Origin: Candidatus Hydrogenedentales bacterium
GTDB lineage: Bacteria; Hydrogenedentota; Hydrogenedentia; Hydrogenedentales; JAEUWI01
Reading direction: 5' to 3'
NCBI GenBank assembly: GCA_044344195.1
Contig: JBIJDL010000003.1
Location: forward strand, 1 to 43,386
DNA: 43,386 nucleotides
Each line of letters opens with the position of its first letter. Positions within the stretch are counted from its first letter, which is position 1. Positions 1 to 43,386 of the stretch are shown here, one piece after another. Under the pieces are notes generated by a model. It had not been told where the DNA came from and did not search any database. It saw only the letters and a list, made by a program, of their open reading frames with translations. A program made the translations under genes and the position numbers.

Positions 1-27
1 ATCAAGTCTTTGAATTGGAGATGTCAC

Positions 28-1383
28 ATGATGCGTCGTATCGTCTTGTTCGCGTTTGTACTTGGACTTCTCGTTCAGTCCGAAGGACAGCAGCTCGCGT
101 TCTCCGGCGCGGAGGGCTATGGCCGCTTTGCGAAGGGCGGACGCGGGGGCGATGTGTACCACGTGACCCAACTCGGCGATTCCGGCCCTGGCTCGTTGCG
201 CGAGGGTGTGGAGACGGCAAGCGGGCCGCGCACGATCGTGTTTGAGGTATCCGGCACCATCGCGCTGAAGTCCATACTCCGCTTTGAGGGAAAAGGGCTT
301 ACCATCGCGGGCCAGACCGCGCCCGGGGAGGGCATCACCCTTCGCGATTACAACCTCCACCTGCGCGACGCTTCCGACTTCATCATTCGATACATCCGCC
401 TGCGCCTTGGCGATCAGAACAAGAAGGGCGACGAAGCGCCGGACGCCTTGACGGTGGATCGCTGCGAGAACTTCATCCTCGATCATCTCTCGGTGGGGTG
501 GGGCGTGGATGGCAACTGCGACACGCGCGGGTGCAAGGACTACACGATCCAGTGGTCCATTTTCAGCGAGGCCCTCCACGAGAGCATCCACCCCGAGGGA
601 CCCCACGCCATGTGCGCCTCCTTCCGCGGCCCGCTGGGCAACGGTACAATCCACCACAACCTCTTTGCCTCCAGTCGCGACCGCCACCCCACCATCGGCG
701 GCTCGGTGAAAGACCCCCAATGGCTCATCGACTTCCGGAACAACGTCATCTTCAACTGGAGCGGCGCGGCCAACGTCTGCGACAACCAGGTGAACCTGGT
801 GAACAACTACTTCAAGCCGGGCCCCGAAACCAATCGCGAGCGCCAGCCCGTGGCCATGAAGGCCAGCCTGCCCGACAAGGCGAAAGGCTGGATGGGCGGT
901 AACGTCTTCGAGGGGAACGACGACTGGACGAAGGACAACTACAGCGCCATGGATATGAAAACCTGGATCAAGCCCGACTCAGGTTACAAATACGCCGGTA
1001 CGTTGGAAGACTGGAGCGTGGACAAACCCTATGAACTCGGTGAGAACACCCCGGAGACGCAGCCCGCTGAGGACGCGTACGAGAAGGTGCTGGAGAAGTC
1101 GGGAACTTCAATCCAGCGAGACGCCGTGGACACGCGCTTCATCGCCGATCTGCGCCAGGGAAAAGGAAAACTGATCAACTCGCAGGAAGAAGTCGGCGGC
1201 TGGCCGGAATTGAAGGGCGGAGAAGCCCCTGAAGACAAGGATCGCGACGGCATGGCCGACGCCTGGGAGCGCGAGCATTGATTGGACCCGACAGATCCGG
1301 GAGATCGGAACGAAGTGGGCGAGGGCGGATATACGCGACTGGAGGAGTATTTGAGTGGGCTGTGTGCGGGCTTGTCTCAATAG
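28..1383 (+). CDS. Secreted pectate lyase (PL1-like) family protein; in-frame TGA at 1279-1281, homologous reading continues to TAG at 1381-1383
   Basis: Signal peptide; AFSGAEGYGRFAKGGRGGDVYHVT, DSGPGSLR, GPRTIVFEVSGTI, TIAGQTAPGEGITL, DFRNNVIFNW and DRDGMADAWE motifs; GGAG before ATG 28. After the TGA the frame reads LDPTDPGDRNEVGEGGYTRLEEYL, the usual family C-terminus. Confidence 0.85.
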
Positions 1384-28500: not shown

Positions 28501-31218
28501 ATGCGCGTTTTTCTCTGCTTTTTGCTCCTGATCGCTCCCCTGGCCGTTCCGGCGGAAGTCATAGACGATGAAATCGAGATAAAAGGCCATCTCGTCGAGC
28601 TGGGAATGAGCCCGGATGGGGGCGGCGCGCTGCACACCTTTGGCCTGGTGGCGACGCCCTCCAATCTGGCCGGGGGGGATGGTCTGCTGCAGGAGGGCTT
28701 CGGCGTTGGCAGCTTCTATGTGCCCAACCGCCGACTGAACGAGCGCATGGAGGCCCTGGACTCTGTATCCGACCGTCCCGTCTTGCAATATACCTATGAT
28801 TGCGACGGCCCGAACATTCAGGGGCTTCAGTCGATCCGCAAGATGGAGCTGATCCCGGACGAGGCTTCGGTGCGCGTCACGTGGACCGTGAAGAACAACG
28901 GCAAGGAACGGCAGTGGGTGGCGCCCTGGGTGCGCAATGATGTCACGCCGGGCGGCACGGTGAGCGAACTCGATCGATTTGACGTTCCCTCGCGCGGCGG
29001 GATCGTGCAACCGGCCCACACGGCCTATCTCCCGGCCTCGCGCAACTGGTTCGCTATGACCGATCCGGTGGAGGACGAGACTCTTTATGTGGTCTTCAAT
29101 GCGAACCACACCCATTCATTTCTCGTCCAGCCCTATGTGAAAGACGAGGCTGGCGAATTCCCGAAAGCCATGAGCGTTCAGACCGCCTTCGTGCCCTTCC
29201 TGCTCGGGCCTGGAGAGTCGTGGAGCACCCAATACCGGTTGAACATGGTGCGCGGCTTAAAGCATGTGGACTTCGCCACGGAAGAGTTCGCCATGCAGAT
29301 CGACTATGTCAACGGGAAGCTGACCATGCTCGTGTCGGCCATTAAGCCCATGCCGGGACTTCAGGTCGATACGCGTATCAAGGCCACGGACGGCGAAGTG
29401 TGGACCTTGCCGCGCAAGCAGTTTGATTTGGCGCCCAGCCAGCTCGCGCGCTGCAGCTACGAGTGGAAAGCGCCCGCCAACGGCGCCTACGAAGTGCTCG
29501 CCCAGATCTTCCAGAAGGGCAAGGCGCTCAAGCTCGGGCAGGAAACGGGTTCGCCCCACGGCGGGATCGACACGCGCTTTGATGTAGGCAACGCTTCCGC
29601 CACCCCTTTCCGCGCCTGGACCGATGCGCCCCATGCCCTGGACCAGCAGCCGCGCAGCATGGCCCGCACACTCGCGGTGAAAGGCCCGGTGACCATCTGG
29701 GCGGAGCCTTCTCTGCGCAAGATTCTGCCGCAGGACGTTGCGAAGCCCGATGGTCCTGTGGACCCCGTGGTCCGCGTGGCCCTGGCACAGGGCGAGTCCG
29801 AAAGTTTCCAGATCGCAATCCGCCCGAAAGAGAAGACGAACGTGAAGGGCGTGAATGTTACCCTTCAGGATCTGGTCGCCAGTGACTCGGACGCCCGGAT
29901 AGAAGCGAGCACCGTCAAGATTTTTACCCAGCAGTATCAGCACATCGCTGTGCCCAGCCACTTCGAAGGGCCCACGGGCTACTGGCCGGATGCCCTGGTG
30001 CCGTACAAGCCCTTCGATGCGCGCGGCGGCATCACGACGCCCCTGTGGTTCACCCTGAGCGTGGACGAGAATACCGTGCCCGGGACCTATACGGGTTTGA
30101 TGGAGATCGAGGGAGACGGGCTCTCGCCTGTGGAGCTGTTCGTTGAAGTGGAGGTCTTCGGCTTCAAGCTTCCGTCGCGCCCGATGCTGAAGACCGACTT
30201 CGCCTTCGACTCCGATCAGGCCTATGGCGACCACAAGAACTATGGAGGCAAGCTGTCCCAGGTGCAACTGGAAGCGCTCTTCTTCGAGAACGCCGCAAAG
30301 CACCGCGTCACGCTCCGTTCGGCCATTCCCTTTCCGTCGGAACAGCCCGACTACAGCAAGGCACTGGCGGCCTACAAGGCGCGACTGGCCAAGGCGAATC
30401 CGGCGGGCGTTTCAACGATCAGCGTTCCCCAGACCCTCCTGAATCACGTCGATCAGCTCGCCATGGCCAATGCGTTCGTGGTGGAGAATGGTCTTCAGGA
30501 TCGGGCCTTTGTCCATCTGGCCAACGAGCCGCCCCGGCCCGCCTGGCCTCGGGTGATGGAAGGTATCCAGGCTTGGAAAGAGGCCGCGCCGGATATTCCC
30601 GTCATGATTACGACCTACGGCCTCGAGCCCTTCCTCCCGGATGGACTGGAGCGGTGGGCGGTGCATGCGCCCGTCTTCGATACCGTGAACAACGCCCGCG
30701 TGCTCGAGCGCATCGGCGCGGGCGAAGAAGTGTGGTGGTACGTAGACCAGACCCCGCCCCGGCCCTATGGCAATTTCTTCGTCGACTTCGATTCCATCGA
30801 TCACCGGATTCTTTTCTGGCAGGCCTGGGCCCTTGGTGTCCGGGGTATGCACTATCGCAGCATCAACGATCACCGCGGCGGGGGCGACCCGTGGAAGGAG
30901 CTGGTGGATGTGACGCCCGTGAACGGAGATGGATTCCTGGTTTACACCGACAAGAACGGCCCGATTAATTCTATTCGCTGGGAGAATATTCGCGACGGGA
31001 TCGATGACTATGATTATCTCGCCGTGTTCAACGACCGCCGGCGCAAACTGCTCGCCCAGCCGGGCCACGAGGCGCTACTCCAGCGCGCTGCTGAGGTATA
31101 CAACCTGAAGGATGTTATACCCAGCCTCGTCAGTTTTACCCGCGACCCCGAGGTGCTCGAAAAAAAGCGTCGCGCCATCGCGGAGATGATCGTAGAGATG
31201 AACGCGGCGTTGCGCTAG
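28501..31218 (+). CDS. Secreted DUF4091 / GH123-like glycoside hydrolase domain protein
   Basis: Signal peptide; AQGESESFQIAI, WPDALVP, PLWFTL...PGTYTG, VWWY, GDGFLVY, SIRWENIRDGIDDYDYL. Confidence 0.75.
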   Translation: MRVFLCFLLLIAPLAVPAEVIDDEIEIKGHLVELGMSPDGGGALHTFGLVATPSNLAGGDGLLQEGFGVGSFYVPNRRLNERMEALDSVSDRPVLQYTYDCDGPNIQGLQSIRKMELIPDEASVRVTWTVKNNGKERQWVAPWVRNDVTPGGTVSELDRFDVPSRGGIVQPAHTAYLPASRNWFAMTDPVEDETLYVVFNANHTHSFLVQPYVKDEAGEFPKAMSVQTAFVPFLLGPGESWSTQYRLNMVRGLKHVDFATEEFAMQIDYVNGKLTMLVSAIKPMPGLQVDTRIKATDGEVWTLPRKQFDLAPSQLARCSYEWKAPANGAYEVLAQIFQKGKALKLGQETGSPHGGIDTRFDVGNASATPFRAWTDAPHALDQQPRSMARTLAVKGPVTIWAEPSLRKILPQDVAKPDGPVDPVVRVALAQGESESFQIAIRPKEKTNVKGVNVTLQDLVASDSDARIEASTVKIFTQQYQHIAVPSHFEGPTGYWPDALVPYKPFDARGGITTPLWFTLSVDENTVPGTYTGLMEIEGDGLSPVELFVEVEVFGFKLPSRPMLKTDFAFDSDQAYGDHKNYGGKLSQVQLEALFFENAAKHRVTLRSAIPFPSEQPDYSKALAAYKARLAKANPAGVSTISVPQTLLNHVDQLAMANAFVVENGLQDRAFVHLANEPPRPAWPRVMEGIQAWKEAAPDIPVMITTYGLEPFLPDGLERWAVHAPVFDTVNNARVLERIGAGEEVWWYVDQTPPRPYGNFFVDFDSIDHRILFWQAWALGVRGMHYRSINDHRGGGDPWKELVDVTPVNGDGFLVYTDKNGPINSIRWENIRDGIDDYDYLAVFNDRRRKLLAQPGHEALLQRAAEVYNLKDVIPSLVSFTRDPEVLEKKRRAIAEMIVEMNAALR

Positions 31219-34024: not shown

Positions 34025-35155
34025 TTAAACGCGCAGGAAAATCTTTCGCACGTAGAGGAATCGGGCGAAGGCGAAGACGAGGACGATGGCGACCGCATTG
34101 ACGAAGAGCGGGCCGTAGTCCCCGAACAGAGCGGCGACCGGGCCACCGGCGATACGGGGGGCGATCTTCTCAAACTCAATGAACTCAGAGCACATGTAGA
34201 TCATCAGGGGGTTGGCGCCGATCCAGATCAGGGGTACACACCAGCGCTGCGCTTTCCAGACGTCGACGATGGCGTAGAAAATGCCCAGCAGGATGCAACT
34301 GTAGCCGCCCGCAACCAGCACGAAGCTTGATGTCCACATCTTCTTGATTACCGGGAACTGTAGGCCCCACAGGTATCCCAGCGCCACCATCAACACGCCC
34401 GACCCGATGTAGACGCCAACGCGCTGCCAGTCGGTCAGGCGTTTTTCGCGGAGCAGGAGCGCGGCGAAAATACCCAGCAGGGCGGTGGCGATCGCCGGGA
34501 AAGTGCTTAGCAATCCCTCGGATTCGGCGTATTGCCCTTCTTCCTTCATGGGCAGGAACTTGTAGTCCACCCAGTCCACGATATTTTCTTTCCGGTTGAA
34601 GGTGGTGCCCTCGGCGCCAAGATCAGGATGGGGCACGAAGGTGAGCAAGGCCCAGTACGCAATCAGGATGAACACGAAAATGGCCGCGATGCCCTTGGTG
34701 CGAACATTGAGGAAGATGAGCGAAGCGCCCAGATAACACCAGGCCATGCGCTGGAGCACGCCGCTGAAGGGGCTCTCACCCGCGAGGTCCGCGATACCCC
34801 CGTCTCGAAAGGCGCCGAGGAGAAAGAGCAGGACGAAGCGGCGCAGGATGTGGAAGTAAGCGGCGCGTTTACCGTTCTGCTCGACATATTTGGGCAGGGA
34901 AAAGACGGTGGACATTCCCAGGAGAAAAACGAAGAGAGGGAAAATGAGATCGTAGAAGACGAAACCATCCCAGCCGACGTGTTTGAGCTGATTCGCGAAG
35001 CCCTGGGCGAGGGGGTGTTCGCTCGTTTTTCCAATGGAGCGGGCGAGGTGATCCGCGCCGATAATCCAGAACATGTCGAAGCCGCGCAGGGCATCGACCG
35101 AAAGGACGCGGGCGGTGGCGGGGGCTTGCGGGGTGGGGTACTTTTTCTTTCCCAT
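34025..35155 (-). CDS. HGSNAT/NagX-like (DUF5009/DUF1624) membrane acyltransferase
   Basis: RVLSVDALRGFDMFWI, HVGWDG..FYDLIFPLFVF, GVLQR, EGLLSTFPAI, PVIKKMWTSSFVL. Confidence 0.88.
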   Translation of the reverse strand: MGKKKYPTPQAPATARVLSVDALRGFDMFWIIGADHLARSIGKTSEHPLAQGFANQLKHVGWDGFVFYDLIFPLFVFLLGMSTVFSLPKYVEQNGKRAAYFHILRRFVLLFLLGAFRDGGIADLAGESPFSGVLQRMAWCYLGASLIFLNVRTKGIAAIFVFILIAYWALLTFVPHPDLGAEGTTFNRKENIVDWVDYKFLPMKEEGQYAESEGLLSTFPAIATALLGIFAALLLREKRLTDWQRVGVYIGSGVLMVALGYLWGLQFPVIKKMWTSSFVLVAGGYSCILLGIFYAIVDVWKAQRWCVPLIWIGANPLMIYMCSEFIEFEKIAPRIAGGPVAALFGDYGPLFVNAVAIVLVFAFARFLYVRKIFLRV

Positions 35156-35228
35156 GGCGAGGGTCTCCTGAGTGGGGCCGCCAAATGATACGCCGCGGGA
35201 TTGGGGAACTCAAGCTGCGGGAGGGGGA

Positions 35229-35253
35229 GATCGGACGGATCGGTCGGATCGGA
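35229..35253. repeat. GATCGG(A/T)CG 9-mer tandem repeat (about 3 copies)
   Basis: gatcggacggatcggtcggatcgga in the intergenic region. Confidence 0.65.
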
Positions 35254-35360
35254 GTTGGGGGGATGGGGCGGGCGGCTCTCGGGGGTGCAGCCACCCTCGC
35301 CAAACGACTCGATTTCACGCTTGCGCGGCGGAGCAATCCGGGCTCGGGAGGCAGTCCCCC

Positions 35361-36518
35361 TTATGCCGGTGTGATCTTCCCGAGCACCACCCGCTTTTCC
35401 GCGCCGGTGGCATGGGGCACGTTGGCGGGGGTTCCCATGATGCACTCGTTGCCCAGGATGGCGAAGGCGATGGCCTCGCGTGCATCGGTCGGGATGCCGT
35501 ACTGATCGCTGGTGAAGACCTGGCAGTCGCGGAAGCCGTCTCTCAGTTTCTTAAGCAGCGATTTGTTGTGGGCGCCGCCACCACCGACGATGATATGCTC
35601 GGCGGGATTCTCGGGCTTGATGAAGCGGTCATAGGCTTGGATAATGCTCCGCGACACGGCCTCGGTAATCGTGGCGACTAGATCTTCCGGCGTGTGCTCC
35701 GAGCGGCTGGCCAGGGCATCCCGCAGGTAGACGTTCACCCCGAATTCCTCCCTGCCCGTGCTCTTGGGCGGTACCTTGGCAAAGAACGGGTGATCCAGCA
35801 GGTAGTTCAGAAATTCATCGATGATCATGCCCTTCGACGCCATCTCCCCGTCTTCGTCCATTTCCTGTAGACCGCGGGTAAGAATGCGCACGGCACCATC
35901 GATGGCCATGTTACCTGGGCCCGAGTCGAAGGCGAGGACATTGCGGAAATCAGGCGTTACGCAGGTGAAATTGGCGATGCCGCCGATGTTGAGGCAGGAA
36001 ACCGGACGATTGAGCTTGTGGAAAAGGAGCCAATCGGCGTAAGGGACCAGCGGGGCGCCCTGGCCGCCGGCCGCCATGTCGCGGGGGCGAAAATCGGATA
36101 TGACGGGGAGGCCGCATCGCTCCGCAATGATGGCGGACTGGCCAATCTGCAGGGTGCCGCACTTTTCGTTGGTGCGGGGAGGGATGTGGGCCACGGTGTG
36201 CCCGTGGGAGGCTATGAAGTCGACGGTCACTTCGTCTTCAGGCGCTTCGGCGATGAGTTCCTGGGCCGCCTCGGCGAGGCGCTCGCCCAGCTCAAAATCG
36301 AGCACGCAGAGATCCCGTGCGGACAGGTGCTCGTCCAGAAGACGGTTCTTGAAGGAGCCGGGGTAGGGAAAGGTCTTGTGCGCAATGAGCTTCATCACCA
36401 GGCTCTTGCCGGTGCCCTTGATGCGCACCAGCGCGGCATCGACACCATCGCACGAACTGCCCGACATAAGCCCGATTCCGAAGCGGGCGGGCTTCTTCTG
36501 GATGACGCGTAAGTCCAT
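35361..36518 (-). CDS. anmK: Anhydro-N-acetylmuramic acid kinase
   Basis: IGLMSGSSCDGVD, SHGHT, DFRPRDMAAGGQGAPLVP, LNIGGIAN, FDSGPGN, PPKSTGREEF, GGGAHN, EAIAFA. Confidence 0.95.
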   Translation of the reverse strand: MDLRVIQKKPARFGIGLMSGSSCDGVDAALVRIKGTGKSLVMKLIAHKTFPYPGSFKNRLLDEHLSARDLCVLDFELGERLAEAAQELIAEAPEDEVTVDFIASHGHTVAHIPPRTNEKCGTLQIGQSAIIAERCGLPVISDFRPRDMAAGGQGAPLVPYADWLLFHKLNRPVSCLNIGGIANFTCVTPDFRNVLAFDSGPGNMAIDGAVRILTRGLQEMDEDGEMASKGMIIDEFLNYLLDHPFFAKVPPKSTGREEFGVNVYLRDALASRSEHTPEDLVATITEAVSRSIIQAYDRFIKPENPAEHIIVGGGGAHNKSLLKKLRDGFRDCQVFTSDQYGIPTDAREAIAFAILGNECIMGTPANVPHATGAEKRVVLGKITPA

Positions 36519-36754
36519 TGCCGAGTCCTTCATAGTCAGATTGGGGGCCCGAACAAACGACCCGAGGTCGCCGGACACCGCGCACCACACTCTCCCTAAC
36601 CGCCCGATGCGCCCTTCATGGCGCACCCGGCCCGCCCGTCGGCGCACACCGTCCAACACGGGCATAATCTTCTGAGCGACTCTATCATACTATTGTGCGC
36701 GGCGCAAACCGATCTCGCGGGACTTGAATTCAACACGCTGGACCCCTGTTCCAC

Positions 36755-39700
36755 CTACCCGAGGTGTCTCGCGCGCCGGCGCTGCCCGAGCAGCAAGCCG
36801 GTGAAGGTCAGGGCCACCACGAGTGCATTCCCCCACGGCCATTCGCCGGGGCGATCCACCGGGCCGCAACCCAGCCCCTTGGCGGGCGCACCTGTACCCG
36901 ACAGCGCCGCCGTCAGGAGGCCGCCGGGGTCTCCTGAAAATGTAATGGCCGCGGCGTAGGGCGTATCGTCCCGGGGCGAAAAGCGAATGAGAAACTGGTG
37001 GGTCTCGCCGTGGCCGAGGTTGTAGCTTGCCTCGCCGACCAGGGCGAACACGCCCGTGGCATCGCGGAGTTCCGCCGTGCCAATCAGGCGCTCGCCACCG
37101 TCGTTGGTAATCGTGATAAGTTCTTCGACCGACTCATTGACCCGGACCTCGCCCAGGCTTATGGTTTCGTCGATGTCGGGCGTGCTCGAGAAGATTGGGG
37201 GCTTCAGCGACTCCAGCGCGACCAGGGTGCCCAGCCGTGAGACGGTGGCGGTGAGGGTGCCGGAGTCCGATACCGCATCGTCCGTATTGGCCGAGGACCA
37301 GGATCCACCACCGGGCACGACCGTGAGGCCGGTCACGTCGTCCGAGAGAACCGACACCCCGTTGAGGAAGAAGGTCGCCTGATCTTCAGGAGAGAAGTCG
37401 AGCTGGTTGAGTGAAACGGTCAAGGGCCGCGCATCCAGCCTCGCCACGCTTACCGGGGCAAACTCGGCAGCGCCGACCTCGCGGACGATCACCTCCAGGG
37501 CGATCCACGGCGTGCCACTGACCTCGTCCTCCGGTAACGCCTCGATTTCGTCGGCCTGCTGCCGGGTGAACAGTGCCTCAGGACTGCACGCGATGGCGGC
37601 AATGAGAATGGCTTCTTCGCCGTCCGCCGCCAGGCCGTGGGGAATGGTCACATTCACGCTTTGCTGCGGATTGGCCGGATTCACCAGTGCGGCCTCGATA
37701 TTGCGGCCGGGTACATTGGTGCCGCGCCATGCATGCAGCAGCACGGTGCGCTCGCAACCCACACTGGTGACGGTGCGCTCCCAGCGCGATCCATCATTGA
37801 CGAGATCTTCGAAGGGGAAGTCGAGGTAACCGTTGTCGTCCCCGTCCGAGCCATTGCGAAGCTCGAAGGTGACGTCGTCGGACTGGACCGTCTGGCCAGT
37901 GCTCGTGAGGGTGGCCGTCACGCGGACACGGTAGGCAGTGTCCACCGGAAGCGTGAAGACCGCCGGCGTGTCGCCGCGAACCTGCTTGTTGAGTTCCGCG
38001 GTTTGCCCTTTCCGGTTGGCAGGTGCCGAAGCCCGTCCAAAGTCATCGGCAACCTGTAGCTCTTCCGGTGCGACGCCGCCGTTGCGATCACCGTCGAGGT
38101 TGTCGAAACGAACATCGGAAAGGCCCGGCAATAGCGTGCGAATCTCGGTAAGGCCCAGCGTCGTGTCGCTGTCCGCATCCAGGGACTGGAAGTTTTCCAG
38201 CAGGAAACCGGGGAGGTCTTCTTCCGCCGAAAGCTCCTCGCGGGTGAGCACCCCGTTACGGTTGAGGTCGAGCAAGTTGTAGCGGAGCTGATCGATGTCG
38301 AGCGCTGTAGCCTGAGTCTCCGCGATGGAAAGGCCGGTGCTGTTGTCGGTATTGAGTGCCGCAAAGTCGACCAGAAGGGCGGAGGCGATATCCGATAGGA
38401 TGACTGCGGCTTCCAGTTCCTCCACGGAAAGCTGGCTGTTGCCATCGAAATCGAGCGTGTCGAAGCGGGCGCTGGTGAGGCCGATGCGGCTGGAAGCTAC
38501 TTCAGACTCCGCCAGGACACCGTTGAAGTCGGCGTCCAGAGCATCGAAGTTTTGCAGTAAGTACTCGGCCAGATCCGTGATCAGAATACTTTCCGCACCA
38601 ATATCAAAGCTGAACTCGATATCGTCGGCGCTGCAGGCACCCTGAATGTTAACGTCCGCTTCGGCATTAAAGGTCACATCGAGCGCCTGCGCACCGGGCG
38701 GGGCCAGGAGGTCGCCGGTGGGCTGGATCAAGCGAACGCCGTCTTCGCGGATAACGCATACGACCTGGGACTCCAGTTCCCGGGGTGATAGACCGGGGTT
38801 CAAGTCCAGCGCTTCGAAGGTCGCCCTGGTCAGTGCCGAGAGCGAATCGGGCAGTTCATCCAGGGTCAGGCTCCCGCTTCCATCCGCGTCGAGCATCTCG
38901 AAGTTCTCGCGGATAAAATCCAGATCGCCGAAAATCAGAATTGCCGTCTGGAGCTCCGACGGCGTCAGGGGCATGGCCGAATCGAGGTCCATGTAGTCGA
39001 ACGCCTCTTCGGTAAGTCCGGGCACGCGGGTCCGGGCTTCGGCCAGCGTGAGCAGACCGTCGCCATCGTCATCGGCCAAGTCGAAATTGTCGAAGAGGGT
39101 CTGCGCCGAGGCGGTGTACCCGATGCCCCCCTGAATCTCGGCGAGAGAAATCTCAACCTCCAGGTTAAGCGAATCGAAGCGCTCGCGCGTGAAGCCGGGG
39201 AGAAGGATCAGGGCTTCGTCGAACTCGAGTATGCCATCCTGATTCGCGTCAATGCTGTCAAAGTTGTCGAGGAGCACCTCGGCGGCCACCGCATTGTCCT
39301 CGTCGTCGGGCTGATCCACGATCGTGACCCCGAAGGCCCGCTCAAAGGTCTGGCCCTGGGGATCGCGGCTTCGAATCAGGATGGTGTATTCGCTTCGCGT
39401 CTCGAAGTCGAACACGACGCGGCTCACGAGCTGATTGGCCACGATGCCGAAGAACTCGTTGTCCACGAAATCATCGTCGTCCGTGGACGGATCGTCGGGA
39501 ACGAGGCTGTAGAGGTGCAGGTCACCCAGATCGGGGTCCGCCGTGGAGAAGCGACCAATCACGGTATCCAGCACCTGATTCTCCAGGATCGTGTTGGCGT
39601 TCAGAGAAATTCCCGTTGGGGGATCGTTCACTCTGGCTACGTCGACTCGAACGTTCCACACATTGCTGTCGATATTTCCATCGCGCACCGTTACCGGCAC

Positions 39701-42700
39701 GAAGAGGACCCCGTTGAAGTCCTTGTTGGGAATAATCGAAGTGCCTTCGCGGGTGTAGTTGGCATCGGCCGGGAGGGGCTGGAACGCCAGCGTAATCTCC
39801 TCAGGGAAGTCCAGGAGCGGCGCGTCAACCACCAGATTATCCAGAATAATCGTCACGGGCGTGTCTTCGGCCGTGGCGACGGGATTCTGCCCCACGATCC
39901 TCGGCGTGCGATTGCCGATACCGAAAAGGCTGACCTTGGACACGATGGGCGTACCTTGTCCCTGCTGGTTGGCCTCGACCCGCAGCGTGCCGACTTTCGC
40001 GCCCTCCGTGGAGGGGTCGAACACAATGCGGACCAGGCGGGATTGGGCCGTTTCCAGCGTTTCTTCACCGGAATCGGAAAGGATCTCGAAAGCGCAGGTC
40101 GCGTTGATTTCGTCTGAAGTCAATCCATCGCTTCCATCCGTGTCCAGGGTCGCGAACTGGGTGAGTAGGGATTCGGCGAGTACGGATTTCACGGCGCCGA
40201 GTTCCTGTTCCGAAAGCTCTTCGTCCCCATCTTCATCAATAGCGGCGAAGCGGCCGGGAGTAAGGAGCGGCACGAAAGCGTTGATCTCGCTCATGGTGAG
40301 CGCCTCGTCACGATCGGCGTCAAGTCCGGTGAAATCCACCTGGAGTTGCGTAGCCAGAAGGGCGAGCTTCAGGCGCTCGTCGAGCTCGGCCCGGCTGAGG
40401 ACGCCGTCACCGTCGCCATCGAGATCGAGGAACTCAAGCTCGGTGAGATCGGGAAGTATGCTCTGCGCCTCGGTGAAATCGAGCCCTTCCGGGGCGCTGG
40501 TATCGAAGTCGTCGAAGCTGTTGAGGAGGCTCTGAGCGAACTCGGCCAGCAATACGGCGGTATTGAGTTCGGCAGACTCCAATTCACCGGAGGAGTCGCC
40601 GTCCAGGGCCTCAAAGCGCGGGTCGGTCAGGAAGGGGAACTGAAGATCCATCTCCTCGGGGCTGATGTCGAGGGAAGAATCGAGGTCAAGCGCAGTGAAG
40701 CGGCTGATGATCTCCTCGGCAAGGTCGAAGAGGTCGATGGCGTCTTCCAGTTCTCTTCGGAGTCCCACGCCCCGGCTCAACGCGCCGTCGCCATTGATAT
40801 CGAGCTCGTCGAAGCGAGCCTGGGTCATGACGGGGAAGATATCGGGGCCGCAGGCCAGGCTCACGCTGTCCAGCGTCAGGTCGCCGAGGCCGTCGTTGAT
40901 AATGCTGACGGACTGTGGACTACTTGGCCCCGCGAGGAGGTTGCGTTTCCCGAAATCGAGGGTGCTCGGGGTCACGCGGATGTCGCTGTCCAGCGCGCGC
41001 CCGGAGAGGTTCACGTCGACGGCGGCATCATCGGGATCGTCCGATTCCACGCGCAGGCTCGCCCGCTTGTTGCCGATCGAACGCGGGTCAAACGCCAGGG
41101 CGATCAACCGGGTCTGTGCTGGAGCGAGCGTGTCCTCGTCGGTGTCGCTTACGATAGTGAAGTCGCTCAGGGAGGCGCCCTCCAGGCCCACAAAGCCCAG
41201 GGTCAGGTTGGCAGTTGCCGTAGCGGTGTTGGTGATTTCTACGGTGCGGGTGGCGGTGGGGCCATCGTCAATGTCCTGATCGCCGAAGTCGATGGTGAGA
41301 ATCTCGGGCACGACGGCGAGTGCCGGAACAGCCCGAACGCTGGTCTGGGTCGCATCGGCGGCGGTGTTAATGGTCTCCGGATCGTCGGAGACGACGGGCG
41401 CGTGATTGTCTCCGCTCGCTATGCCCTGATATCGAATCACGTTGGTGCCGGCGCGCAGAACGGGATTGATTTCCACAGCAAAGGTGATGGTGATGGTTGG
41501 GCCATTGGTGAACACCGGATTGCGCCCGTTCAGCGAACCAAGATTCAGGAGCAGATCCGATTGCCCGCCTTCGTTTACACGGGCCGTTCCATTGACCAGG
41601 ATGGAGTCTTCATCGAGAGTGACCCGCGCGTCGCCCGTGTCGAGTTCATTGAACTGCGTCTCGGTCAATGCAAAGAGGGAGCCGTTCAGCTCCGCGGTGG
41701 AAAGGCCGGCACTCTCGTCCACATCCAGGACGGCAAAATTGCCCAGAAGCGCGGCGGCCACATCGCTGAGGGAATTGCCGCCATCGACCTGCTCAAGTTC
41801 CAGTTCGGAGATCTCATTGTCGCGGAAGGGCACCCGATAGGACAGATTGAGGGCGCCAAGATCTCCACGATTTTCAATGGATACGGAATACTGGATGACA
41901 TCGCCGGGCTGCTTCTCTTCGTTGCGCGTGATGTCGTCACCCTGCCGCACCACAAGGGCGGGTGCCGCAAAAATCGGAGTTACGGTCGGTGCCGGTCGCA
42001 CGATGTTGCCGTCGCCATCCACCTGGATGATGTCCGAGTCTTCGATCACCACGGCGCCCGGGTCATCCGTAAGCACTGGCGCGGTCTCAGTCGGGCGTTC
42101 TTCAAAGTCCAGAGAGCCCTGATTCACGAGAAACGCTGTTCCTGGCGGAAGTGGGTTCGCTACAGCGAGGTCAAAGGTGATCCGGGCGGTACTTCCGGGG
42201 CTCCCGTCACCCTGGATGCTTCCAAGATTGACCGTGAGCGCGCCCGCGTCGATAACCACGACGGACCCCGGTGTCGAAGCCGTGACGGAGTCCTCGATAA
42301 GGCTTCCATTCGCGATGGCTGGCTGCGTATAGGTGACATTGTTCGCACCGCCGTTCCCGAGGTTGGAAATGTCAACGGTATACCGGATCGTGTCGCCGGG
42401 ATTGGCCACGCCGTCCGTGTTCGCATCGAATGTCAGTGTGTCGGTGTTGCTTGCACCCAGTTCAATCACCGCGGTAACGGCGGTGCAGATATCCTGGTCA
42501 GGCGTCGTATCGGAGAAGTTCACATCGGGGTTGTTGGGCTCACCGAAGAAAAGACCGCGGGTGCAGATCTGCTCGCGGCCCTCCGCCGGGAATGGGGCAT
42601 TCACGGACACGGCGTACCGTATGGTTACGGAGTCGCCCAGTGGCAACGTGCCCACATTGACGACAACGCCGCCGATTCCGCTGCTTACCACGGAGCCCAC

Positions 42701-43386
42701 CGTCGTGGTGGCGCTTCCCGCGATAAGCGAGGAGTTGGGATCAGGCGCATCGCTGAAGTAGACGCCGCGCGCGTCCGAGGGGCCGCCGTTCGTGGCTGTG
42801 ACGGTATACGACACAACATCACCGGGCTGTGCCGTCTCGCGATCTGCCACCATGGTTACATTGAGTGTTGCCTCCGGCACCAGGGTAGCGCTGTTGGTGC
42901 GGCTGTTGCTCGAATCGTCCGTTTCGAAGACTAGCGGGGGGGCGAGCACCGAGCCGGACACGACCAGTGCGCCTGTGGCGGCGGGATCGATGTCGGCCGA
43001 GAGCCGGTACTCGACCGTTTCGCCGGAAGCGAGGTCTACCGTCTCATTGATAGGGCCGGTACCGCTGGTGCCGCATGCGTCGCAGGTCCAGGTCACGCTC
43101 TGCAGTGCCGCGGGAAGCACGGTGGAGACTTCGGCTGCGGCCACCGGGCTCGGGCCCAGGTTGCGCACCTGGAAGGTGTAGGCCACGCCCTCGCCGGGGA
43201 CCACGACATTGGGATCGCGTGTGATGAAAAGTTGGAGGTCCGCCACGGGACGGATCGTGTCGCTGTTCGACTCCACGACGGCACCCGCTGTGATGCCGTC
43301 GCCCGGCGTCACCTGGAAATACCAGACTTCTCCCTCGATCGTGGAGGCACCGGGAACTTCAGTAAGATTGTTGAATGCGGGTTGGA
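36755..43386 (-). CDS. Giant cell-surface protein, 5' end outside the window: DUF11 repeats, ASH/choice-of-anchor-D-like Ig domains, cadherin-like domains, about 11 EF-hand-pair repeats, C-terminal anchor
   Basis: Frame is open to the window edge; PGDVVSYTVTATNGGPSDA-type DUF11 motifs; IDFG...FDP Ig domains; VNDPPT...DPD...FDFET cadherin; many DxDxDGxLxxxE loops; GCG...GNALVVALTFTGLLLGQRRR end. Confidence 0.88.
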   Translation of the reverse strand, partial: QPAFNNLTEVPGASTIEGEVWYFQVTPGDGITAGAVVESNSDTIRPVADLQLFITRDPNVVVPGEGVAYTFQVRNLGPSPVAAAEVSTVLPAALQSVTWTCDACGTSGTGPINETVDLASGETVEYRLSADIDPAATGALVVSGSVLAPPLVFETDDSSNSRTNSATLVPEATLNVTMVADRETAQPGDVVSYTVTATNGGPSDARGVYFSDAPDPNSSLIAGSATTTVGSVVSSGIGGVVVNVGTLPLGDSVTIRYAVSVNAPFPAEGREQICTRGLFFGEPNNPDVNFSDTTPDQDICTAVTAVIELGASNTDTLTFDANTDGVANPGDTIRYTVDISNLGNGGANNVTYTQPAIANGSLIEDSVTASTPGSVVVIDAGALTVNLGSIQGDGSPGSTARITFDLAVANPLPPGTAFLVNQGSLDFEERPTETAPVLTDDPGAVVIEDSDIIQVDGDGNIVRPAPTVTPIFAAPALVVRQGDDITRNEEKQPGDVIQYSVSIENRGDLGALNLSYRVPFRDNEISELELEQVDGGNSLSDVAAALLGNFAVLDVDESAGLSTAELNGSLFALTETQFNELDTGDARVTLDEDSILVNGTARVNEGGQSDLLLNLGSLNGRNPVFTNGPTITITFAVEINPVLRAGTNVIRYQGIASGDNHAPVVSDDPETINTAADATQTSVRAVPALAVVPEILTIDFGDQDIDDGPTATRTVEITNTATATANLTLGFVGLEGASLSDFTIVSDTDEDTLAPAQTRLIALAFDPRSIGNKRASLRVESDDPDDAAVDVNLSGRALDSDIRVTPSTLDFGKRNLLAGPSSPQSVSIINDGLGDLTLDSVSLACGPDIFPVMTQARFDELDINGDGALSRGVGLRRELEDAIDLFDLAEEIISRFTALDLDSSLDISPEEMDLQFPFLTDPRFEALDGDSSGELESAELNTAVLLAEFAQSLLNSFDDFDTSAPEGLDFTEAQSILPDLTELEFLDLDGDGDGVLSRAELDERLKLALLATQLQVDFTGLDADRDEALTMSEINAFVPLLTPGRFAAIDEDGDEELSEQELGAVKSVLAESLLTQFATLDTDGSDGLTSDEINATCAFEILSDSGEETLETAQSRLVRIVFDPSTEGAKVGTLRVEANQQGQGTPIVSKVSLFGIGNRTPRIVGQNPVATAEDTPVTIILDNLVVDAPLLDFPEEITLAFQPLPADANYTREGTSIIPNKDFNGVLFVPVTVRDGNIDSNVWNVRVDVARVNDPPTGISLNANTILENQVLDTVIGRFSTADPDLGDLHLYSLVPDDPSTDDDDFVDNEFFGIVANQLVSRVVFDFETRSEYTILIRSRDPQGQTFERAFGVTIVDQPDDEDNAVAAEVLLDNFDSIDANQDGILEFDEALILLPGFTRERFDSLNLEVEISLAEIQGGIGYTASAQTLFDNFDLADDDGDGLLTLAEARTRVPGLTEEAFDYMDLDSAMPLTPSELQTAILIFGDLDFIRENFEMLDADGSGSLTLDELPDSLSALTRATFEALDLNPGLSPRELESQVVCVIREDGVRLIQPTGDLLAPPGAQALDVTFNAEADVNIQGACSADDIEFSFDIGAESILITDLAEYLLQNFDALDADFNGVLAESEVASSRIGLTSARFDTLDFDGNSQLSVEELEAAVILSDIASALLVDFAALNTDNSTGLSIAETQATALDIDQLRYNLLDLNRNGVLTREELSAEEDLPGFLLENFQSLDADSDTTLGLTEIRTLLPGLSDVRFDNLDGDRNGGVAPEELQVADDFGRASAPANRKGQTAELNKQVRGDTPAVFTLPVDTAYRVRVTATLTSTGQTVQSDDVTFELRNGSDGDDNGYLDFPFEDLVNDGSRWERTVTSVGCERTVLLHAWRGTNVPGRNIEAALVNPANPQQSVNVTIPHGLAADGEEAILIAAIACSPEALFTRQQADEIEALPEDEVSGTPWIALEVIVREVGAAEFAPVSVARLDARPLTVSLNQLDFSPEDQATFFLNGVSVLSDDVTGLTVVPGGGSWSSANTDDAVSDSGTLTATVSRLGTLVALESLKPPIFSSTPDIDETISLGEVRVNESVEELITITNDGGERLIGTAELRDATGVFALVGEASYNLGHGETHQFLIRFSPRDDTPYAAAITFSGDPGGLLTAALSGTGAPAKGLGCGPVDRPGEWPWGNALVVALTFTGLLLGQRRRARHLG

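Follow-up and report, generated by a model that had tools for sequence, protein, structure and literature searches.

Ig-like stalk domains that are split by a guest domain, which buds sideways from the fibre, are known from the RTX adhesins, where the split Ig serves as a criterion for finding ligand-binding domains and the guests include PA14, CBM, peptide-binding, RTX beta-roll and vWFA domains (PMC12077191; PMC10865825). In the examples described there, MpIBP, Vibrio cholerae FrhA and Aeromonas hydrophila AhLap, the N and C termini of the guest lie together, and one AhLap guest is a Ca2+-binding RTX beta-roll. The subject of the present study is likewise an Ig-like stalk domain interrupted by a guest, encoded by a giant surface protein gene of a Candidatus Hydrogenedentales bacterium. 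The window, that is, the whole stretch of DNA analysed (43,386 bp), is an entire contig (C462; JBIJDL010000003.1) of a genome (G000) that comprises 6.55 Mb in 746 contigs with 60.7% G+C. In contrast to the RTX adhesins, the host is here a choice-of-anchor-D/ASH-type Ig domain and the guest an all-helical array of EF-hand pairs, which would be closed by a permuted module and a pair of cysteines rather than being a compact domain with adjacent termini. The protein, from the Hydrogenedentota, ends in a putative hydrophobic anchor and does not classify as RTX-type: neither RTX repeats (RTX/HemolysinCabind) nor a type I secretion signal are found among the 16 Pfam families that match it at E<=0.1.

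The guest, too, is made of a described unit. Bacterial EF-hand pair modules (Pfam EF-hand_7; arrays of P0046, P0078 and P0120) have the same ~60-residue unit, in which a P-x-L-T linker connects a type-1 to a type-2 hand, but such stand-alone or tandem arrays, and also the three other arrays of the giant protein, start with a type-1 hand, end with a type-2 hand and lie between domains, whereas only the array described here is both phase-shifted and nested. In calbindin D9k, an EF-hand pair assembles and binds Ca2+ with a lengthened or severed linker, binding then being coupled to assembly (PMC7674454). The likeness is that the linker of the closing pair would here be a whole Ig domain; the difference is that the engineered linkers of calbindin D9k consist of 1-16 Gly, whereas here a natural folded domain would form the linker and three more pairs stand between the outer ends. 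An EF-hand motif that binds Ca2+/Tb3+ has been placed in a beta-hairpin of a de novo designed Ig domain, EF61_dIG8-CC, where it is one minimal 12-residue loop, as against eight hands in 251 residues of a natural domain (bioRxiv 10.1101/2021.12.20.472081). Domain insertion has been reported in 20% of multidomain proteins, and a term search of that paper returned no mention of EF-hand or Ig (PMC13114784). No description of a natural unit of this kind, with EF-hand pairs arrayed inside an Ig-like domain, was found in the literature searched, which is a limited collection.

The first-pass annotation of this DNA had presented the locus as a branched, nested adhesin of unusual layout. The nesting of the array within an Ig domain stands, while its unusualness was overstated, since a split Ig with a guest is known from the RTX adhesins, and the nested split-domain layout itself is not new for adhesins (PMC12077191; PMC10865825). 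What is new here is the guest, an EF-pair array; its fitting by a permuted repeat and junction cysteines; the host Ig family; the setting in a non-RTX anchored protein; and the phylum.

The split Ig domain and its EF-hand insert

The 3' part of the gene occupies positions 36755..43384 of the minus strand (2209 codons and a stop; all features of the protein given below are on the same strand). Because the window is the whole contig, the gene is cut at the contig end and the open reading frame (ORF) is open at its 5' end. In the 2209-residue translation (P0001), residues 690-800 (40985..41317) form an intact choice-of-anchor-D/ASH-type Ig domain (NF012200, 52.6 bits against a cut-off of 45; Pfam PF22073/PF22544), in which the strings LTLGFVGLEG (residues 727-736) and LIALAFDP (760-767) are found. 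The next domain is split. BLASTP, the alignment and the structural model delimit its N-terminal half (residues 801-845; 40850..40984), which holds strands A-C and ends with LTLDSVSLAC (836-845), its last residue being C845 (40850-40852). The C-terminal half (residues 1097-1160; 39905..40096), delimited by BLASTP, NF012200 and the model, holds strands C'-G and opens with CAFEILSDSG (1097-1106), its first residue being C1097 (40094-40096). The Ig strings that the first-pass annotation had quoted are all present, as is the insert that it had placed at 40094..40852, an interval that runs from the codon of C1097 through that of C845 and has 251 residues in between.

Comparison of the intact neighbour (residues 686-800) with residues 801-1160 by BLASTP gave two collinear matches flanking the insert, at residues 808-830 (E 1e-3) and 1099-1139 (49% identity, E 1e-10). 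The NF012200 profile also matches residues 801-1160 in two stretches, the latter of which spans profile positions 49-107 of 108, and the split Ig alone scores 32.8 bits, under the cut-off of 45. In an alignment of 55 rows (A2), made up of the query, five orthologues, the intact Ig of the window and 48 intact Ig domains of other proteins, each of the 49 intact domains aligns to both halves of the split one. The insert takes the place of no more than the 3-residue turn in the C-C' hairpin, the consensus '...S-L-A-G-x-D-x-x-E-F...' becoming '...S-L-A-C-(251 residues)-C-A-F...' in the query, where C845 directly follows strand C and C1097 stands two positions ahead of the conserved Phe of strand C'. 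Because the two cysteines flank this turn in the alignment, they should be neighbours. The observation that C845 and C1097 bound an interruption in a choice-of-anchor-D/ASH-type Ig domain is confirmed.

The insert contains eight EF-hand loops of two alternating types, with 28 residues from a type-1 to the following type-2 hand, a P-x-L-T cap before the type-2 hand, and 31-38 residues from there to the next type-1 hand. It had been proposed that the insert begins with the second half of a repeat and ends with a first half, and this is borne out by a hidden Markov model (HMM) of the EF-hand pair, which has 69 positions and was made from 11 single modules in other ORFs of the same genome and none from the giant gene. 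Residues 850-872 match HMM positions 34-56, the second half of a module; residues 885-943, 946-1006 and 1007-1065 match positions 3-61/63, that is, three whole modules; and residues 1068-1098 match positions 5-35, the first half. By the HMM, then, the insert amounts to four modules exactly, with the opening at position 34/35 in the linker between the hands. The first half-module (residues 846-884; 40733..40849) consists of a linker GPDIF, a P-x-M-T cap and a type-2 EF-hand with the non-canonical loop DINGDGALSRGV; each of the three complete modules (residues 885-1065; 40190..40732) has a type-1 and a type-2 hand; and the last half-module (residues 1066-1096; 40097..40189) is a type-1 hand with the canonical loop DTDGSDGLTSDE. 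The end of this last loop reads '...E-I-N-A-T-C', against '...E-I-N-A-F-V-P-L-L-T' in the internal modules, and the residues after C845 read 'G-P-D-I-F-P-V-M-T'. Seven HMM matches elsewhere in the protein (residues 538-584, 1366-1540 and 1602-1779) all begin at HMM positions 2-12, and it is therefore only the nested array that is permuted. The type-1 and type-2 module is autonomous, occurring singly in the 11 ORFs from which the HMM was made, and it also builds tandem arrays of unrelated proteins. A census of array phase and edge cysteines by regular expressions over 165 proteins was too noisy, splitting even the array of the query, and was discarded; a census of gaps between Ig half-matches was dominated by missed half-matches in tandem Ig arrays.

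Measured against a canonical 12-residue EF loop (D at position 1, D/N/S at 3 and 5, a hydrophobic residue at 8 and E at 12), six of the eight loops are canonical, and the insert qualifies as a series of EF-hand pairs (PF13499 and related). Over the whole protein, EF-hand_7 scores 55.4 bits (cut-off 30) and EF-hand_6 75.1 (cut-off 25), and no dockerin family is among the Pfam matches at E<=0.1. From their sequences, the six canonical loops would be expected to bind Ca2+.

That the split Ig should re-form in an AlphaFold model had also been anticipated, and it does so. AlphaFold 2 run with three orthologues only (alignment A1) gave an unusable model of mean predicted local distance difference test (pLDDT) 41.4, while with A2 the mean for the 367-residue query was 78.1. 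In blocks of ten residues, pLDDT is 85-96 in the Ig halves, 92-95 in the N-terminal one (strands E7-10, E13-20, E29-35 and E41-50), and mostly 80-94 in the three internal EF modules, where beta-bridges join the paired loops inside each module and long continuous helices link a type-2 hand to the next type-1 hand. When the model was compared with 48,161 PDB representatives by VIA-align, whole ASH/PapD-like domains superposed on model range 5..363, namely CEP192 SPD-2 (7ptb; Z 13.2, root-mean-square deviation 1.9 Å, 106 aligned residues), CEP192 (6fvi; Z 12.9, 2.4 Å, 114 residues) and the Ig domain of Vibrio VesB (4lk4; Z 12.6, 2.1 Å, 102 residues). Since the two flanks total only ~116 residues, against 102-114 aligned, both must take part in one sandwich, and the model supports a single beta-sandwich Ig fold formed by the two flanks around the EF-hand array. 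A repeat superposition on the PDB returned the same Ig result and nothing further on the arrangement of the EF part. Foldseek against the PDB gave nothing at E<=1e-3; as it is unable to span the insert, it matched nothing beyond calmodulin-like pieces or the C-terminal half of the Ig. In MAFFT trials with 20-30 EF-array rows the intact Ig rows were shifted into the insert (0/48 correct), for which reason the final alignment holds orthologues and Ig rows only; paralogues in the genome (two ORFs with the Ig domain) were too few to deepen it.

Homologue searches, including one of a set of 1.84 billion representatives, retrieved only two proteins (P0002 and P0003) that cover the whole 367-residue query, every other match covering the Ig halves or the EF part but not both. 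The nested order of N-terminal half, EF array and C-terminal half was found only in these two and P0001 among 21 retrieved proteins with Ig matches and at least two EF loops. A contig search gave five related loci in metagenome-assembled genomes (MAGs) of Hydrogenedentota/Hydrogenedentales or metagenome assemblies, 66-94% identical, and all five keep both cysteines and an insert of 250-251 residues. The cysteines that had been noted at the edges of the insert, C845 and C1097, are invariant in 6/6 aligned orthologues. In a survey of 135 genomes of the phylum at E<=1e-20, the unit was found in eight, in each case over query residues 1-367 and all of one genus (the present genome and 7/8 others), as against 0/6 genomes of other genera of the family and 0/120 of other families. 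The whole unit is conserved across one genus, the insert and both junction cysteines being retained in 8/8 genomes with the gene.

Proposed closure of the side branch

The account that we favour, with moderate confidence, is that the nested unit is a Ca2+-stabilised EF-hand side branch on an Ig stalk, closed by a non-contiguous EF-hand pair together with a disulphide. A surface protein of ~4200 residues would be exported by Sec and anchored at its C-terminus, and one of its choice-of-anchor-D (ASH/PapD-like) Ig domains would act as host, the C-C' hairpin turn of which is replaced by four EF-hand-pair modules, one of them cut in its linker. The chain passes from an Ig strand into a second half-hand, on through three whole pairs joined by long helices, into a first half-hand and so back to the Ig domain. 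With Ca2+ bound, the two terminal half-hands would assemble into a fourth, non-contiguous EF pair, so that the two ends of the array would meet at the neck of the hairpin, and the two cysteines flanking the replaced turn would then lock the neck by a disulphide formed extracellularly. The outcome would be a Ca2+-stabilised helical side branch that stands out from the stalk close to where the next domain joins it, most likely a rigid binding or spacing platform, as in the RTX-adhesin split-domain units that present their guests. A straight array could not return to a 3-residue turn, and permutation would provide the way back. We infer the pairing of the terminal half-hands, with which the complementary break points, the tolerance of calbindin D9k for altered linkers (PMC7674454), the Leu at loop position 8 in both terminal hands of 6/6 orthologues and the high conservation of the first half-module are all in keeping. 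The latter has the highest conservation of all the EF units (77% pairwise identity as against 53-70%, over four lineages), the Ig halves being at 87-88%, and its loop DINGDGALSRGV is followed by an invariant G-x-G...E-L-E.

A number of observations weigh against this account. The intact Ig rows of A2 bias the model toward a re-formed Ig, the two cysteines are placed close together by the alignment alone, a role as binding platform is drawn only from analogy, and the homologue and 135-genome searches found no orthologue lacking the insert. The others concern the two elements of closure. Both terminal half-modules have the lowest pLDDT of the model (42-47 in the first, 47-58 in the last), and no beta-bridge between the loops of these half-hands was found in it; the first loop, DINGDGALSRGV, is without an acidic residue at position 12 in 6/6 orthologues, and the fourth, DTSAPEGLDFTE, has a Pro at position 5, so that 6/8 loops look competent. 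The low pLDDT is probably explained by the mere six informative rows for the EF part, and a complex prediction of the terminal half-hand peptides (model residues 50-97 and 267-302) with two Ca, run without controls, gave a score of 0.18 and a mark of 0.32 and is counted neither way. The weak terminal hands would suit an array that is nested in the Ig hairpin with its terminal half-hands unpaired, packed on the Ig or disordered, and acts as a flexible Ca2+-responsive loop or spring. It would be hard to explain, however, why an array whose ends never pair should comprise exactly four modules with complementary break points at HMM position 34/35, or why its first half-module should be the most conserved EF unit, and the ends of the array must be near each other anyway, as they leave from a 3-residue turn; we consider unpaired ends unlikely. 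Still less credible, indeed very improbable, is an array that serves not as a structural Ca2+ module but as a lanmodulin-like lanthanide binder or an XopAW-like effector module. It does give weak NCBIfam matches to lanmodulin (NF053806, 44 bits) and the XopAW type III effector family (NF041410, 62.4 bits), and Foldseek lists the lanmodulin structure 8dq2 (E 6.5e-3), but the scores are far under the curated cut-offs of 135 and 120, place the array in neither family and reflect generic EF-hand similarity, and the protein is a 4200-residue surface fibre, of which the orthologue has a signal-peptide-like N-terminus.

The disulphide between C845 and C1097 faces the difficulty that no DsbA (PF01323, PF13462), DsbB (PF02600) or VKOR (PF07884) was found in the genome of the window, which is 91.9% complete, and that three of these four profiles (PF01323, PF02600 and PF07884) also found nothing in a relative with a single-contig genome of 7.9 Mb (G001), in searches that gave positive controls in 3-9 of the 14 reference genomes. 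The junction cysteines might thus be reduced, metal-binding or kept for packing, with closure left to the Ig fold and the EF hands; this is the most serious of the alternatives, although we give it less credence than a disulphide. Cysteine is rare in the protein, with 11/2209 residues that fall into five sequence-neighbour pairs (101/104, 274/300, 845/1097, 1543/1584 and 1877/1933) and one in a C-terminal motif (2173), and all 11 are kept in P0003, which is 67% identical over the region, as are all seven within the span of P0002. This pattern is typical of extracytoplasmic disulphides, and together with the position of both residues at the neck of the hairpin, flanking a tight turn, it argues for a bond; the rarity of cysteine and the invariance of both residues also make their chance placement unlikely. 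Both genomes contain heme-copper oxidase genes; terminal oxidases of this kind point to a life with oxygen, which makes it plausible that the bond forms by spontaneous oxidation outside the cell. An assembly chimera or sequencing artefact, finally, might be suspected of a fragmented MAG in which the gene is truncated at a contig end, and is refuted, to the point that we attach next to no weight to it, by the same junctions in seven other genomes, one of them the single-contig 7.9-Mb chromosome, and by uninterrupted frames in five.

The remainder of the protein and its surroundings

Full-length orthologues have 4199-4417 residues in a single open frame in five genomes, and the N-terminal third is absent from the window. 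In the orthologue of the single-contig relative (L006:13672-18501, plus strand; ~4200 residues), the N-terminus is signal-peptide-like with a Cys inside (LLGFGSCLGALPAWA) and is followed by ~120-residue tandem repeats and then cadherin/VCBS-like repeats. The Pfam families of P0001 are DUF11, DUF7927/DUF7507, Cep192_D4/HYDIN-VesB-type Ig, ASH, cadherin-like and many EF-hand matches. It belongs to the choice-of-anchor D or ASH (PapD-like) Ig family, represented by PF22544, PF22073 and PF15780 in Pfam and by NF012200 in NCBIfam (75.8 bits, cut-off 45, in four stretches), and the NCBIfam DUF11 repeat is matched as well.

EF-hand modules recur in other parts of the protein, as unpermuted arrays of three pair modules at residues 1364-1543 (38756..39295) and 1600-1784 (38033..38587), both recognised by the HMM, and as a single unpermuted module at residues 537-592 (41609..41776; HMM positions 2-48). 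The latter lies apparently inside a DUF11-like domain (residues 475 to about 670; 41375-41960) and is probably a second, smaller nested insert: in Smith-Waterman comparisons none of 500 shuffles reached the score of the N-terminal flank, while 8 and 11 of 500 did so for the C-terminal part, a weak similarity in the expected register, and BLASTP of the presumed split DUF11 left the C-terminal part undetected. The array at residues 1600-1784 is flanked by strand-like stretches, residues 1543-1600 (bracketed by C1543 and C1584) and 1805-1860 (together ~37805-38758), and residues 1543-1860 may, judging from this layout, be another split beta-domain, with an unpermuted array and a return linker of ~25 residues; the Pfam hint of an Ig there is weak (E 0.16).

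At the C-terminus, residues 2170-2209 (36758..36877) consist of G-L-G-C-G-P, ~12 residues, a hydrophobic helix and the Arg cluster RRRAR, and form a putative sorting signal or membrane anchor; no NCBIfam model, sorting-signal models included, matched the last 50 residues. Similar Cys-containing tails are present in other ORFs of the genome. The EF-module HMM matches 23 of its ORFs, roughly 14 of which share one C-terminal cassette of, in most, a (GE)n spacer, then one EF-hand pair, a G-C motif, ~12 residues, a hydrophobic segment that often starts with LGDLFLLG, and basic residues (contigs C12, C157, C297, C445, C533, C536, C562, C609, C612, C641, C656, C672 and C722). From its make-up, this cassette looks like a lineage-specific C-terminal sorting or anchor domain preceded by a Ca2+-binding module.

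Downstream of the giant gene and on the same strand (34025-36665, minus strand) are genes for AnmK, an anhydro-N-acetylmuramic acid kinase (423.8 bits), and for a NagX-like glucosamine N-acetyltransferase, the score of which (265 bits) does not reach the cut-off of 480. Both genes belong to cell-wall recycling and show no obvious connection with the surface protein, and the housekeeping neighbours, AnmK, the NagX-like protein and a Clp-type ATPase included, give no functional hint for it. An ORF of 905 residues at 28501-31218 (plus strand) matches no NCBIfam family at E<=1.

Implications for branched surface proteins

The reach of these findings is limited to one genus, and domain insertion as such is common. 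They nevertheless extend split-domain, branched adhesins beyond the RTX adhesins of Proteobacteria, to another Ig family, another type of secretion and anchoring and a little-studied phylum. They also point to a different way in which a tight hairpin can accommodate a long array of repeats: the repeat is permuted, and its two end halves would make up one module. If the nesting within DUF11 is real, the placing of EF modules inside beta-sandwich domains would be a recurring habit of the giant protein. If the closing pair and the disulphide are real, the unit would be a compact natural template for Ca2+-switchable Ig insertions, which have so far been engineered with single loops only.

A further and more speculative proposal, which we regard as doubtful, is that of a natural Ca2+-gated clasp, in which the fourth EF pair would form only with Ca2+, the Ig domain itself being its inter-hand linker, and the pair of cysteines would act as a redox-dependent second lock. 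If true, the protein would hold a natural instance of an EF-hand pair that is split and comes together again around a folded domain. Ca2+ occupancy would be linked mechanically to whether the C-C' hairpin of a load-bearing stalk domain stays intact, and the stiffness or extensibility of the giant protein would be a read-out of external Ca2+ and redox state.

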